A stretch of 64,000 nt of DNA from NCBI GenBank assembly GCA_947488275.1, contig CANKZX010000001.1:447-64446 (forward strand). The letters are read 5' to 3'. The notes beneath the pieces were generated by a model. The model saw nothing but the letters and a program-made list of their open reading frames with translations, had not been told where the DNA came from and ran no database searches. Made by a program: the position numbers and the translations under genes. The DNA is from Alphaproteobacteria bacterium (GTDB lineage Bacteria; Pseudomonadota; Alphaproteobacteria; Paracaedibacterales; CAIOTO01). This document shows positions 38,817 to 41,963 of this stretch, in pieces (positions within the stretch are counted from its first letter, which is position 1; each line of letters opens with the position of its first letter).

Positions 38817-39599
38817 CTATTTAATTTCTTCTGTCACACGTACACCATTGCTATAAATAAATGCACCATTAGAATCAGAATAATTATAGCTATACACCCC
38901 AAGCAAATCTTCACCAATATGAATACCGCCCCCACTTTGCCCTTTATGAGTCTTTATTTTATAGTGAAGGCATTTGTCATCTTCACACTCCTCTACCAAT
39001 TTGAATGCTGTACACATTCTCCTACCCTGATAATTCAAATAATCAGGATAACCTTTTAGATGAATAGCGGCATTTCTAAAATAATCATTACTTTCTACAC
39101 AAACAGTATACCATCCTGTTTTTAACCCAATTTTGTATTTAAGTTCCAGAACAGCTATATCATACGTATAAGATTCATCTTGATCATTGTCTTCATTCGT
39201 CCATTTAGGATGAATATGATATTGTTTTACCTTTGAAGAAACACTACATGGATTATAGCTACTATAAGAAATAGGAGAACAACCATCATGAAAAGCAGGA
39301 AAGAACAATATTTCATAAGGTACTTTTCTATGATACATTCTATGCTGCTTGTCCTCTTCCGTATCATTTCTCACAAAAACATTGTGCGCCGCTGTCAAAA
39401 CACACGTATCACTAACCATGGTAGCACTTGCCCAAAAGACACGACTATCACCACCTGGTGTAATATTTGCAAATAGCATCCTTAATCTACCATGCGAAGA
39501 AAATTCCTCCACATTAGATACAGGAACCATATCAACACTTGCATTAGCTAAAAAATAAAAATGAAAGATAAAAAATAAAAACAGAGTTTTAAAAAACAT
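38817..39599 (-). CDS. Secreted S1-family (trypsin/V8 glutamyl-endopeptidase-like) serine protease
   Basis: Signal peptide MFFKTLFLFFIFHFYFLANA; catalytic triad contexts LTAAHNV (His), YDIAVLEL (Asp), KGQSGGG (Ser). Confidence 0.8.
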   Translation of the reverse strand: MFFKTLFLFFIFHFYFLANASVDMVPVSNVEEFSSHGRLRMLFANITPGGDSRVFWASATMVSDTCVLTAAHNVFVRNDTEEDKQHRMYHRKVPYEILFFPAFHDGCSPISYSSYNPCSVSSKVKQYHIHPKWTNEDNDQDESYTYDIAVLELKYKIGLKTGWYTVCVESNDYFRNAAIHLKGYPDYLNYQGRRMCTAFKLVEECEDDKCLHYKIKTHKGQSGGGIHIGEDLLGVYSYNYSDSNGAFIYSNGVRVTEEIK

Positions 39600-39606
39600 A
39601 GATTAG

Positions 39607-39891
39607 TTAATATTTAGATGAATAAAAAAGATTAAGAAAAAAAGTTAAAACAGCTGATCTTTGCTCTTCAATAACAAAAGTTGTTACATCATCCGAAGTC
39701 ACTTCACTCACTTTAGGTATAACCCGAGAATCATGCATATCTTTTCTTACAATACATAAATCACGAAAACCTATTTGCGTAGTACCATCGACATCTAATG
39801 TCGTCACTGCTGCCTCGACCTTTTCACAAAAGAAAGGCAACACAACGACGATAAACATAAAAATTATCTTACGCGTTTTATCTTTTCCCAA
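39607..39891 (-). CDS. Small hypothetical protein with N-terminal signal/anchor
   Basis: 94 aa, IIFMFIVVVLPFFCEKVEA; 7 bp upstream of protease gene. Confidence 0.5.
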   Translation of the reverse strand: MGKDKTRKIIFMFIVVVLPFFCEKVEAAVTTLDVDGTTQIGFRDLCIVRKDMHDSRVIPKVSEVTSDDVTTFVIEEQRSAVLTFFLNLFYSSKY

Positions 39892-40013
39892 TAAAACTAT
39901 TATCTATGGCACATAATACACTTTATTGAGATTAATTACCACTTAATAATATAAAGAAAAAAACTAAAAATTCTATTCAAATGCTAAATTATACAACAAA
40001 AGTCTAGCACAAA

Positions 40014-41963
40014 TCACATCGGGAACATTGGCGTTTTTCCAGGGAAATCGACTATTACACGCACCCCAGCCGTGATCGCAATTTTCTGAGGTGCCTTAAT
40101 TGTAATACTATTTGTCGCGAACAGATTAATAGTTGCACCTGATAAGTTTAATGCACCCGATGATACAATCGATACATCACCCGCTGATTGAATAGAAATC
40201 CCACCTTTCTTTAGGCTCACCTTATAATTACCTGTTGTCAACGTAAGGGAATGAGTCCCCTTCTCCAACGTGACCTCCATATCCCCCGCTGATAATACGG
40301 TTCGATGACTCCCCTTCAATGAAACAGACATATCAGCACCAACTGCTGTGGTGAAATTATTAGCAATATTAAATGCTGCATCACGCGAAGCCTGCAACAA
40401 CACATTTTCTCTCCCCAACGCATCATCAAACGATAATTCATTATATGCCGAACTACCACCTGTTGAATGTGATATAAAGGCACTTTTTGTCGGGCTATTT
40501 GCCGCATACGTTGGTGGTACATTTTCTGCATGATAAACGCAGCCCGTTACCATTGGACGATCAGGATCGCCATCAATAAACGTTACCAAAACCTCCATTC
40601 CGACACGTGGAATAACAAGACCCCCAAAACCAGAGCCTGCCCAATTTTGCGCAACCCTTACCCAACATGAACTATTTTCATCAAATGTTCCCCGCGCATC
40701 CCAATAAAACTGAACCTTAATACGCCCAAGGTAATCACAATAAACCTCTTCTCCCTTTGGCCCTACAACCCGTGCTGTTTGCGCGCTATAAATACGCGGC
40801 TTTACCGTTTTTCGTGGAGTAACAAAAGGAATATCAAAGGGAATTGCCCTGAAATGATTACTGTAAATTGTTGCCATTAATTGACTAGATAATGCATCTG
40901 TTGTCAATAAACGTTGTTTTGCCTGATCATGTTGCACATCGATATCATCATCAGTTACATCAACAAGTGGTAAACGCGTAATACTATGATGCACTTCATA
41001 GGTGAGATAACGACGATTACAACTCACACTTGGGTGATTTACAAGACCAAACGTTGTCGCATTTCCTAGAAGAGGCGCCGTTGATTTTCCAAAAACCACT
41101 TGCTTTGACCATTCGAGTTCCTGAATACGCTTAGCCGCATATTGATCACCTTGCGCTAAATCATCAAAAATCCCTGGGTATTGATAAACAGAACCGCCTA
41201 AACCATCGCCCTTTACGATTGAACGCAACTGTGTTGATGGCTTCATATAATTTGAATCCGCCATTTTATACTGACTTGGCACAACGTTATATTGACGACG
41301 AAAATAACTGATTTGATTCATTGCCATGCGATCACCAAGAACGGTTTTCATCATGGGTAACGTATCATAAACGTTCGCCGCATTATTTGTTGTATCCATC
41401 AATACCAATGTATGTGCACCATCACTATGAAGAAAGACGTAAGAAATTCCGACTTCCTCCATCAATCGTGAAATGAAATCAAAATTACTTTCACCATATT
41501 GCACACAATAAGTACGTATATTTTTACCAGCTGTCATTGTTTGGTCATTCATTACCACGCCATTGCTTTTAAGAATCGCTGTAATAATATCAATCGTTCG
41601 TAAATTCTGAAAAATATAAAAATTTTGTGTGAATTTCAACATCCACAGATTTGGATGCAATTGAATTTCATAAAACACGTATAAAAGCCCATTCGCATCT
41701 TCATAAGTGTTTACCTGATCAACACATCCAACAATTCCATTAAAGTAGCGTGTACACCCATCAATTATTATTGAAACCGTCGCATTTGTTCCCATGAGTG
41801 TATTGCAATCAATTTCTTTGTTTAACGAATGAACAAGCACTGTAAAAGCATAGGGTTGAGAAATTGATTCTGATCCAGTGAGCGAATCAACAATCAATGT
41901 ATTTTTTCCAAAAATACAATTAAAATTTAAGATAACATCGTCAGAAAGAAATAGATTAGGCAC
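40014..41963 (-). CDS. vgrG: Type VI secretion system spike protein VgrG
   Basis: CVQYGESNFDFISRLMEEVGISYVF (gp27-like), RVAQNWAGSGFGGLVIPRVGMEVLVTFIDGDPDRPMVTGCVYH (gp5 OB), C-terminal beta-helix repeats; GTG start. Confidence 0.93.
   Translation of the reverse strand: MPNLFLSDDVILNFNCIFGKNTLIVDSLTGSESISQPYAFTVLVHSLNKEIDCNTLMGTNATVSIIIDGCTRYFNGIVGCVDQVNTYEDANGLLYVFYEIQLHPNLWMLKFTQNFYIFQNLRTIDIITAILKSNGVVMNDQTMTAGKNIRTYCVQYGESNFDFISRLMEEVGISYVFLHSDGAHTLVLMDTTNNAANVYDTLPMMKTVLGDRMAMNQISYFRRQYNVVPSQYKMADSNYMKPSTQLRSIVKGDGLGGSVYQYPGIFDDLAQGDQYAAKRIQELEWSKQVVFGKSTAPLLGNATTFGLVNHPSVSCNRRYLTYEVHHSITRLPLVDVTDDDIDVQHDQAKQRLLTTDALSSQLMATIYSNHFRAIPFDIPFVTPRKTVKPRIYSAQTARVVGPKGEEVYCDYLGRIKVQFYWDARGTFDENSSCWVRVAQNWAGSGFGGLVIPRVGMEVLVTFIDGDPDRPMVTGCVYHAENVPPTYAANSPTKSAFISHSTGGSSAYNELSFDDALGRENVLLQASRDAAFNIANNFTTAVGADMSVSLKGSHRTVLSAGDMEVTLEKGTHSLTLTTGNYKVSLKKGGISIQSAGDVSIVSSGALNLSGATINLFATNSITIKAPQKIAITAGVRVIVDFPGKTPMFPM

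Follow-up and report, generated by a model that had tools for sequence, protein, structure and literature searches.

The gene behind vgrG in a Paracaedibacteraceae-like alphaproteobacterium: a V8-like protease in a probably recent and decaying cassette

Does a protease gene that lies directly behind a vgrG, in the classic slot for type VI secretion system (T6SS) cargo, encode a T6SS effector? The question is raised by a locus in a 64,000-nucleotide (nt) stretch of the alphaproteobacterial contig CANKZX010000001.1 (hereafter, the window), in which a vgrG gene is followed by a small open reading frame (ORF) and by a gene for a serine protease. The listing of ORFs agrees with an earlier description made from the letters only (the sequence-only reading) in that the three share one strand (it is the minus strand), with the same coordinates and with gaps of 122 and 7 base pairs (bp) between them. 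That description had offered two alternatives, i.e., a novel protease effector loaded on the spike together with a small partner, or a relic vgrG standing beside unrelated Sec substrates. The explanation that now appears probable is that a core and functional vgrG has beside it a recently acquired, decaying cassette for Sec-exported proteins, and that the adjacency of the two is most likely positional (an insertion at a variable synteny breakpoint) and not functional.

The vgrG gene

The spike protein, of 649 amino acids (aa), is canonical and lacks a C-terminal effector extension, just as the sequence-only reading had it. It passes the curated models TIGR03361 (493.5 bits, cutoff 186) and TIGR01646 (333 bits), it contains, in this order, the Pfam domains PF05954 (Phage_GPD, residues 32-329), PF04717 (Phage_base_V, 412-477) and PF22178 (Gp5_trimer_C, 494-556), and it ends in DFPGKTPMFPM, an instance of the motif DFPGKxPxFPM that an alignment of relatives reveals for the clade and that is kept in that alignment regardless of the gene downstream. 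Could this gene be a relic, as one half of the second alternative held? The ratio of nonsynonymous to synonymous differences per site (pN/pS, from Nei-Gojobori counts) is 0.13 against contig L011, about 99% identical, and 0.11 against a sister lineage (L002, about 89% identical, with a pS of 0.36), and the frame of 649 aa is intact in both lineages. The housekeeping neighbours give a pN/pS similar to that of vgrG, and the neighbours of the protease lie at 0.03-0.12.

The synteny on the other side of vgrG points in the same direction. The closest VgrGs belong to genomes and metagenome-assembled genomes of Paracaedibacteraceae, Candidatus Finniella and Candidatus Odyssella, with identities of 40-55%, plus one of 92% (P0002), and the best match among the scanned species representatives of GTDB has 41%. 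In every relative with a readable context (P0002 and, at 55, 53 and 50% identity, P0003, P0004 and P0009), vgrG forms a head-to-head pair with a LOG-family gene; the pairing is seen at 41964-42617 of the window and in contigs L002, L004-L008, L097 and L098. The gene that follows vgrG in the orthologues of 50-55% identity encodes a pyruvate dehydrogenase E1 component or an ABC substrate-binding protein, and none of those orthologues has a cargo-like gene in that place. A lone ImpA_N (tssA-like) gene lies 7 kb from the vgrG of the relative with 55% identity. Because of the low pN/pS and the conserved pairing with LOG, kept down to 50% identity, a relic vgrG is ruled out; judged by these patterns of constraint, the gene is an ordinary, functional spike gene of its lineage, under purifying selection.

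The source organism is a Paracaedibacteraceae-like (Holosporales), protist-associated alphaproteobacterium, and for a vgrG of this clade it is normal to stand alone. The T6SS core genes of Bodocaedibacteraceae, Paracaedibacteraceae and Caedimonadaceae occupy at least four separate loci with a conserved arrangement, in which the conserved unit described in the genome paper of Candidatus Bodocaedibacter vickermanii is [ywqK-vgrG] (PMC8163844). According to a recent review, almost all genomes of Holosporineae keep the system, its substrates lack experimental data and no effector is yet known (PMC11909080). Since the T6SS genes of the clade are dispersed, nothing follows from the lack of core genes within 64 kb. 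The lack itself, already noticed from the letters, was corroborated: T6SS core, PAAR and adaptor families gave zero matches among the window ORFs that were scanned with Pfam, about 20 others (isc genes, ftsA, dnaA, sodB, pabB and others) being named from their translations alone. The locus resembles the dispersed system of Candidatus Bodocaedibacter vickermanii and its kin in the three-domain VgrG and in its position apart from other tss genes, and differs from it in that vgrG, here and in four relatives, adjoins a divergent LOG gene and not ywqK. The LOG-vgrG pair may therefore be a second conserved vgrG locus of the clade, beside ywqK-vgrG.

The insert and its two reading frames

If vgrG is a core gene, do the two ORFs behind it share its history? 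Homology to the sister lineage stops at 40005, just past the vgrG stop codon. The cassette that begins there (38817-40013) has a guanine plus cytosine (GC) content of 32.2%, which places it in the lowest 0.08% of windows of equal size, as compared with 39.6% for vgrG and a mean of 39.8% for the window. The impression that the whole block is AT-rich is thus borne out for the cassette and for its spacer (21% GC), but not for vgrG. Codon usage is atypical in both ORFs, with a log-likelihood ratio per codon of 0.086 for the small ORF and 0.044 for the protease, the mean of confident genes being 0.28. The cassette is present only in two contigs of about 99% identity, L011 (ERZ27280227) and L012 (GCA_964201115.1), so that the linkage of the three genes is confined to these very close strains, is broken in the sister lineage (about 90% nucleotide identity) and is absent at the VgrG orthologues of 50-55% identity. 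Furthermore, the 10-kb flanks of 80 other VgrG loci are free of V8-like proteases. Conservation of the three-gene order in relatives, which the sequence-only reading had put forward as a check of its effector alternative, came out essentially against it. Direct or inverted repeats flanking the cassette were not found, nor was any recognisable insertion scar. Altogether, composition and distribution suggest that both downstream ORFs belong to an insert of their own, about 1.2 kb long, between vgrG and groES, which is AT-rich, young, foreign-looking and specific to a species or strain.

A comparison of window positions 34564-46176 with L011 and L012 gives a mosaic picture. The groES, groEL, MlaC-like and rhodanese genes are 100% identical. 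A divergence of 0.7-1% is seen in the genes for a family 9 glycosyltransferase (GT9), LOG and VgrG, in the small ORF and in the protease gene, and one of about 0.1% in recG; the sharp boundary of divergence at the junction of protease and groES suggests a recombination tract. An additional gene, encoding a 409-aa AAA_14/DUF4143 protein, is present in L011 between recG and the GT9 gene and is missing from the window.

The family of the protease is only just recognised by the general model (Pfam Trypsin, 25.5 bits, cutoff 20.6), and a word-indexed search for homologues returned the protein itself and nothing else. An exhaustive HMMER search, by contrast with the word-indexed one, retrieved 148 relatives, all of them at 35% identity or less, whose public annotation reads 'V8-like Glu-specific endopeptidase' or 'glutamyl endopeptidase'. 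The catalytic triad had been described as intact, rightly so: H72, D147 and S222 are invariant in a family alignment (A1), and H72, D147, G220 and G223 in a second one of 60 sequences (A2), the nucleophile motif being GQSGGG. When compared with the PDB, the profile of 60 sequences has as its best match 1p3c (E = 5.6e-45), after which come V8, Esp and the exfoliative toxins. The structure predicted by AlphaFold2 for a longer, 288-aa allele (mean predicted local distance difference test, pLDDT, 86.5; predicted template modelling score, pTM, 0.83) leads Foldseek to the same entry (1p3c, E = 4.5e-15, TMt 0.81) and then to Esp and V8. Homology and modelling therefore agree in predicting a V8-like serine endopeptidase of the S1B type (COG3591), with the double beta-barrel fold of chymotrypsin and, by homology, a likeness to glutamyl endopeptidases.

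A scan of metagenomes with an alignment of three protease sequences returned a single locus of 3 kb. The nearest relatives of the protease are a frameshifted gene in L010, a 334-aa gene in L099 and the plasmid gene IM40_10800 of the amoeba symbiont Candidatus Paracaedimonas acanthamoebae. They start with a Sec-type signal, usually followed by a Lys-rich linker that resembles a nuclear localisation signal (NLS) or by LRR_6 repeats, and next to them are encoded further small proteins with signal peptides or an astacin-like metalloprotease. No vgrG was found beside them in the contexts examined, many of those contigs being short. In the L010 gene (1452-2707), P0122 (annotated with 223 aa) is the apparent 3' part, and the open frame runs upstream into a 150-aa ORF with a signal peptide and a Lys-rich region, and holds the conserved FPWSVHG motif. 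VgrGs that had evolved to carry such a protease domain were also considered and rejected, as a phmmer comparison of the protease with 120 VgrG relatives gave zero matches.

Both ORFs had been credited with Sec-like N-termini, and this was upheld. The signals were judged by eye from a hydrophobicity scan and, in the protease, from a helix that AlphaFold2 places at residues 2-18. The protease begins with MFFKTLFLFFIFHFYFLANA|SV, where an n-region (K4), an h-region (T5-L17) and a c-region (A-N-A|S) can be distinguished, and this pattern is kept in the sister lineage. The small ORF, if read from its TTG, begins with MGKDKTRKIIFMFIVVVLPFFCEKVEA|AV, with an n-region containing K3, K5, R7 and K8, an h-region (I9-F21) and a c-region (V-E-A|A). 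Public-record gene callers (ENA ERZ27280204, k141_1955929) start it at an ATG further downstream, in which case the charged n-region is gone. Over 11 residues, hydrophobicity peaks at 2.2 in the protease and at 3.3 in the small ORF. The N-termini are accordingly called, heuristically, as predicted Sec signals, with a membrane anchor as the alternative, especially for the small ORF. Under the explanation that we favour, the intact 288-aa protease would cross the inner membrane through Sec, its signal peptide would be cleaved after the ANA, and the mature enzyme, with 7 Cys residues (to which the C-terminal tail of the intact allele adds 3), would fold with disulfides in the oxidising periplasm. 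It might then work within the envelope, or be released and have host or envelope proteins as its targets, and the small protein, if co-transcribed, would take the same route as its partner.

What this small protein could be is harder to say. It has no family match in Pfam, NCBIfam or a sequence search of the PDB, no relative at any of the fetched loci and only 2 members in its 90% cluster, and its AlphaFold2 model from the single sequence (pLDDT 46.8) shows no confident fold. In codon usage its own frame is the best of the six, with a score within the top 5% of spurious ORFs, and between close strains it has 2 nonsynonymous and 0 synonymous differences. Its standing as a genuine gene is plausible but not established. 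Two identities were tried and discarded: an Eag/DUF1795-like chaperone, to which it has no similarity and which would not fit its own signal or anchor, and an ecotin-like inhibitor, for which there is neither sequence support nor a usable model.

Erosion of the cassette and the case for T6SS cargo

The sequence-only reading had described a protease of 260 aa and had missed that this allele of the window is truncated. At 90% identity the protease falls into a cluster of four, with lengths of 260, 288, 186 and 94 aa. The 288-aa allele (P0384), encoded in L011 (8275-9141) and in L012, has CAG where the window has a premature TAG, and the 84 nt that follow this TAG still encode the lost 27 residues and the original TAA. 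The nonsense codon of the window was seen in one assembly of one sample. In the model of the 288-aa allele, the lost segment makes up most of a C-terminal helix (257-286, with a pLDDT of 97 to about residue 270), and alignment column 266, located in the helix and beyond the stop, is Trp in at least 90% of the family. A complete catalytic domain, C-terminal helix included, is encoded by the alleles of L011 and L012, but not by that of the window. The loss of the C-terminal helix probably destabilises an enzyme of the chymotrypsin fold, and the 260-aa product, to judge from alignment and model, is probably crippled. Read-through or recoding of the TAG was also considered, and nothing was found to suggest it.

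The intact allele ends in a tail ...RGYSWWMYWCCCFR (SWWMYWCCCFR) that is rich in Trp and contains three consecutive Cys, and the version of the sister lineage is EYSWWMHWCCCFR (L013, 190-1060). Such a Trp/Cys tail does not occur in the V8-like relatives examined, and it could be a motif of the membrane-anchoring or lipidation kind.

In the sister lineage, to which the assemblies GCA_947490395.1 and GCA_947487315.1 belong, the damage is different. The protease has there a +1 insertion of a G at nt 550, found in 5 contigs from independent samples, which breaks it up into two parts, 186 and 94 aa long. Furthermore, in place of the DNA that corresponds to window 40004-39644 (the spacer and the small ORF except for its last 37 nt) there are 411 nt with no relation to it and with few ORFs, followed by the end of a repeated element with a transposase-like start (MHIEQLFSQALGIIDPWK), where the assemblies break on both sides. 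Ends of the repeated element are found on the vgrG side (L003, 10892-11442) and on the protease side (L013, 1-145) in inverted orientation, implying two copies or an inversion. A GC-rich hairpin of 24 nt in the insert of the sister lineage is found again at window positions 35628-35651, flanked by the rhodanese and MlaC-like genes.

Has the cassette ever been functional? A nonsense codon in the window, together with the frameshift and the replacement in the sister lineage, indicates that it is dispensable and eroding. These three independent lesions might even mean that neither ORF works in any strain, the small ORF being a chance ORF in an AT-rich spacer and the protease a pseudogene remnant of an old horizontal transfer. 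The marginal codon-usage scores, the 2 nonsynonymous against 0 synonymous differences of the small ORF and the lack of a Shine-Dalgarno-like sequence before either ORF, as compared with the AAGGAGG before groES, would all agree with dead DNA. Nevertheless, intact 288-aa alleles exist in two assemblies, the AlphaFold2 model of the protease is confident, the highest score among the six frames of the small ORF is that of its own, and the pN/pS of the protease between the lineages is 0.30 over a pS of 0.22, with the triad, all Cys and the tail conserved. Because this ratio, although higher than in the neighbouring genes (a sign of weaker constraint), is clearly below 1 and these residues are conserved, the protease was formerly a real gene under selection, i.e., past purifying selection has left its mark, and a cassette that is wholly dead DNA, with no functional product in any strain, is distinctly unlikely. 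The small ORF was lost in the sister lineage together with the integrity of the protease. This joint loss fits a functional pair (inhibitor or immunity protein, or another partner), without proving one.

The explanation by a functional vgrG with an unrelated, decaying neighbour cassette has several observations against it. The cassette occupies the classic cargo slot, immediately 3' of vgrG and on its strand, no terminator was detected between the two, and a variable cassette behind vgrG is the typical look of T6SS effector/immunity modules; the joint loss in the sister lineage would fit an effector-immunity pair as well. The nonsense codon comes, as said, from a single assembly and sample, the Sec signals were called from sequence features alone, and the N-terminal helices may be membrane anchors. 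At least one protein with a Sec signal, azurin, is, moreover, reported to bind VgrG and to be secreted by a T6SS (PMC6907878). It is by virtue of the cargo-slot position, of the strain-variable genes lost together and of the azurin precedent that the T6SS readings survive. In their general form they would have the intact 288-aa protease and its small partner as the first identifiable cargo of a Holosporales T6SS, which the core VgrG would bring into the protist host or into competing bacteria in spite of the Sec-like N-terminus, with the alleles seen here recording its loss in some strains. We consider this unlikely, because the predicted Sec signal is kept across the subfamily, neither ORF has a T6SS marker or adaptor (PAAR, MIX, FIX, Rhs, DUF4123, DUF1795 and DUF2169 gave no match in Pfam/NCBIfam), the VgrG tail is unspecialised and the linkage does not recur. 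Among the features expected of T6SS cargo, the adjacency to vgrG is there and the recurrence of the linkage in other genomes is not.

Two particular versions deserve to be weighed on their own. In the antibacterial one, the protease would be loaded on VgrG and degrade periplasmic or envelope proteins of competitors, while the small protein would be a periplasmic inhibitor conferring immunity on the producer. The spacing of the two ORFs directly 3' of vgrG (7 bp apart, on one strand and with no terminator detected), the signal-like N-terminus of the small ORF (as in periplasmic immunity proteins), the variability of the cassette between strains, the joint loss of both genes and a functional vgrG all speak in its favour. 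However, the supposed effector has a Sec-type signal that is conserved in the sister lineage and the closest relatives, there is no marker or adaptor domain, the linkage is absent in other VgrG orthologues and at 80 other VgrG loci, the small ORF has neither a homologue nor a confident fold, and killing between bacteria would be less expected in an obligately host-associated clade, all of which makes this version very improbable.

Delivery to the host is the other version: the spike would bring the protease into the protist cytosol, the small protein would be an adaptor or chaperone, the N-termini would be membrane- or chaperone-binding segments and the Trp/Cys tail an anchor for host membranes. 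Besides the cargo-slot position and the precedent of a signal-bearing substrate (PMC6907878), this is consistent with the tail SWWM(Y/H)WCCCFR being kept between lineages, with the eukaryote-like LRR_6 repeats or Lys-rich NLS-like linkers of more distant protease relatives, typical of host-targeted proteins, and with the T6SS being the leading candidate for host interaction in Holosporineae, where no effector is yet known (PMC11909080). Nonetheless, every point raised against the antibacterial pair applies equally here, and there are others: the small ORF, with its own signal or anchor and no similarity to DUF4123, DUF1795 or DUF2169, would be a poor cytoplasmic adaptor, the relatives with the same host-targeting look carry Sec signals and have no vgrG nearby, and the VgrG tail has no extension specific to the cassette. 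Host delivery by the spike is thus very improbable as well.

As to the two original alternatives, the novel protease effector with a partner does not hold in the form in which it was written and is the less likely one; the linkage does not recur, and the relatives have Sec-type signals and no vgrG nearby. From the other one, the 'unrelated Sec substrates' are favoured (the linkage is limited to strains of about 99% identity, the relatives are Sec-signalled and not linked to vgrG, and the 80 VgrG loci are clean) and the 'relic vgrG' is given up.

The surroundings of the locus and its known counterparts

The features of the locus are collected in Table 1. Downstream of the protease, on the same strand, lie groES and groEL, and upstream of vgrG, divergently, the LOG gene; the protease starts 414 bp 3' of the vgrG stop codon, on the same strand. 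In promoter and terminator scans of the locus, only the groES promoter rose above the shuffled expectation (TTGACA-17-TAAATT, 10 of 12 matches), and no Shine-Dalgarno-like sequence could be read before the small ORF or the protease. On the 3' side of this promoter-like site, a perfect inverted repeat, TTAGCACTC-N9-GAGTGCTAA, was read directly, which we take to be of the CIRCE type and which would imply control of groESL by HrcA.

Table 1. Features of the vgrG locus, with positions in the window
Feature	Position	Strand	Remarks
vgrG (tssI)	40014-41963	-	649 aa, GTG start; gp27-like, OB-fold and gp5 beta-helix domains
Spacer between vgrG and small ORF	39892-40013	-	122 bp, 21% GC; onset of the strain-specific insert
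Small ORF	39607-39891	-	94 aa from TTG 39891; 83 aa from ATG 39858
Signal-like or anchor segment of the small ORF (N-terminal)	aa 1-27, nt 39811-39891	-	
Predicted V8-like (S1B, COG3591) serine endopeptidase, truncated allele	38817-39599	-	260 aa
Predicted Sec-type signal of the protease	aa 1-20, nt 39540-39599	-	from sequence features
Catalytic triad of the protease	H72 39384-39386; D147 39159-39161; S222 38934-38936	-	
Premature TAG, protease codon 261	38817-38819	-	CAG (Gln) in L011 and L012
Stranded 3' end of the protease gene, untranslated	38733-38816	-	codons 262-288 and TAA; encodes FIDNQIEKSDNDNRGYSWWMYWCCCFR
groES promoter-like site and inverted repeat	38644-38697	-	TTGACA 38692-38697; repeat 38644-38670; groES-side border of the cassette
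LOG-family gene (PF03641, 'possible lysine decarboxylase')	42075-42617	+	divergent from vgrG

The window is part of a metagenome contig of 79 kb (k141_1955929 of ENA ERZ27280204). The wider setting is a housekeeping one, with a che cluster, isc genes, recG, lpxB and dnaA. The last of these (62350-63756, minus strand) lies at the right-hand end of the window, which would place the locus about 20 kb from the likely replication origin. The che cluster (24312-30493, minus strand) is full, with cheY, A, W, R and B and a gene for a methyl-accepting chemotaxis protein, and fits a motile organism with a symbiont-like genome that is not extremely reduced. Other candidates for secreted or host-directed proteins in the window are encoded by two genes for phosphatases of the phytase type, similar to protein tyrosine phosphatases, or of dual specificity (19-510, plus strand; 23091-23954, minus strand, the latter with a signal-like N-terminus), by a gene (17125-19011, minus strand) whose 628-aa product starts with a signal-like segment, contains Gly/Ser-rich repeats (SSHSGAFGAGGGS) and matches nothing in Pfam, and by two genes whose products, of 517 and 413 aa, have no Pfam match (31468-33021 and 33214-34455, both on the plus strand).

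How does the cassette compare with what is known? The S1B glutamyl endopeptidases (BIGEP of Bacillus intermedius, 1p3c; V8/SspA of S. aureus, 1qy6; Esp of S. epidermidis; the exfoliative toxins) have in common with the protease the fold, the triad, the GYPGD-like and GQSGxG motifs and the Sec signal, which in the protease is a predicted one. Unlike them, the window protein, which is only 16-21% identical, has 7 Cys in the mature domain and no evident propeptide, the tail SWWMYWCCCFR of the intact allele is unusual, and the C-terminal helix is missing from the window allele. The V8-like proteases of protist symbionts (IM40_10800, P0122, P0123 and the gene in L099) are the nearest relatives, with 27-34% identity, and share with it the Sec-type signal and an accessory or mobile context beside small signal-peptide proteins, but they have Lys-rich NLS-like linkers of 60-150 aa or LRR_6 repeats that the window protease lacks, their small neighbours are not homologous to the small ORF, and none of them adjoins vgrG. 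The vgrG-linked cargo islands, such as the auxiliary clusters of Vibrio cholerae and Pseudomonas aeruginosa, are alike in the order vgrG-small protein-enzyme on one strand and in their strain-variable downstream content; in contrast to them, the window locus has no adaptor, PAAR, MIX or Rhs, its putative effector has a predicted Sec signal, the linkage is non-recurrent and the tail of VgrG is unspecialised. VgrG and the S1B V8-like endopeptidases are known families, and the oddities of the locus are the Trp/Cys tail and the adjacency to vgrG.

If the reading as T6SS cargo were true, the protease would be the first known cargo of a Holosporales T6SS. More plausibly, the cassette illustrates how quickly secreted accessory proteases come and go in symbiont genomes, and the form relevant to function is the 288-aa allele of L011 or L012 and not the 260-aa allele of the window. 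For the clade as a whole, a solitary vgrG is not to be flagged as a relic, and T6SS cargo is only weakly supported by gene neighbourhood on its own.

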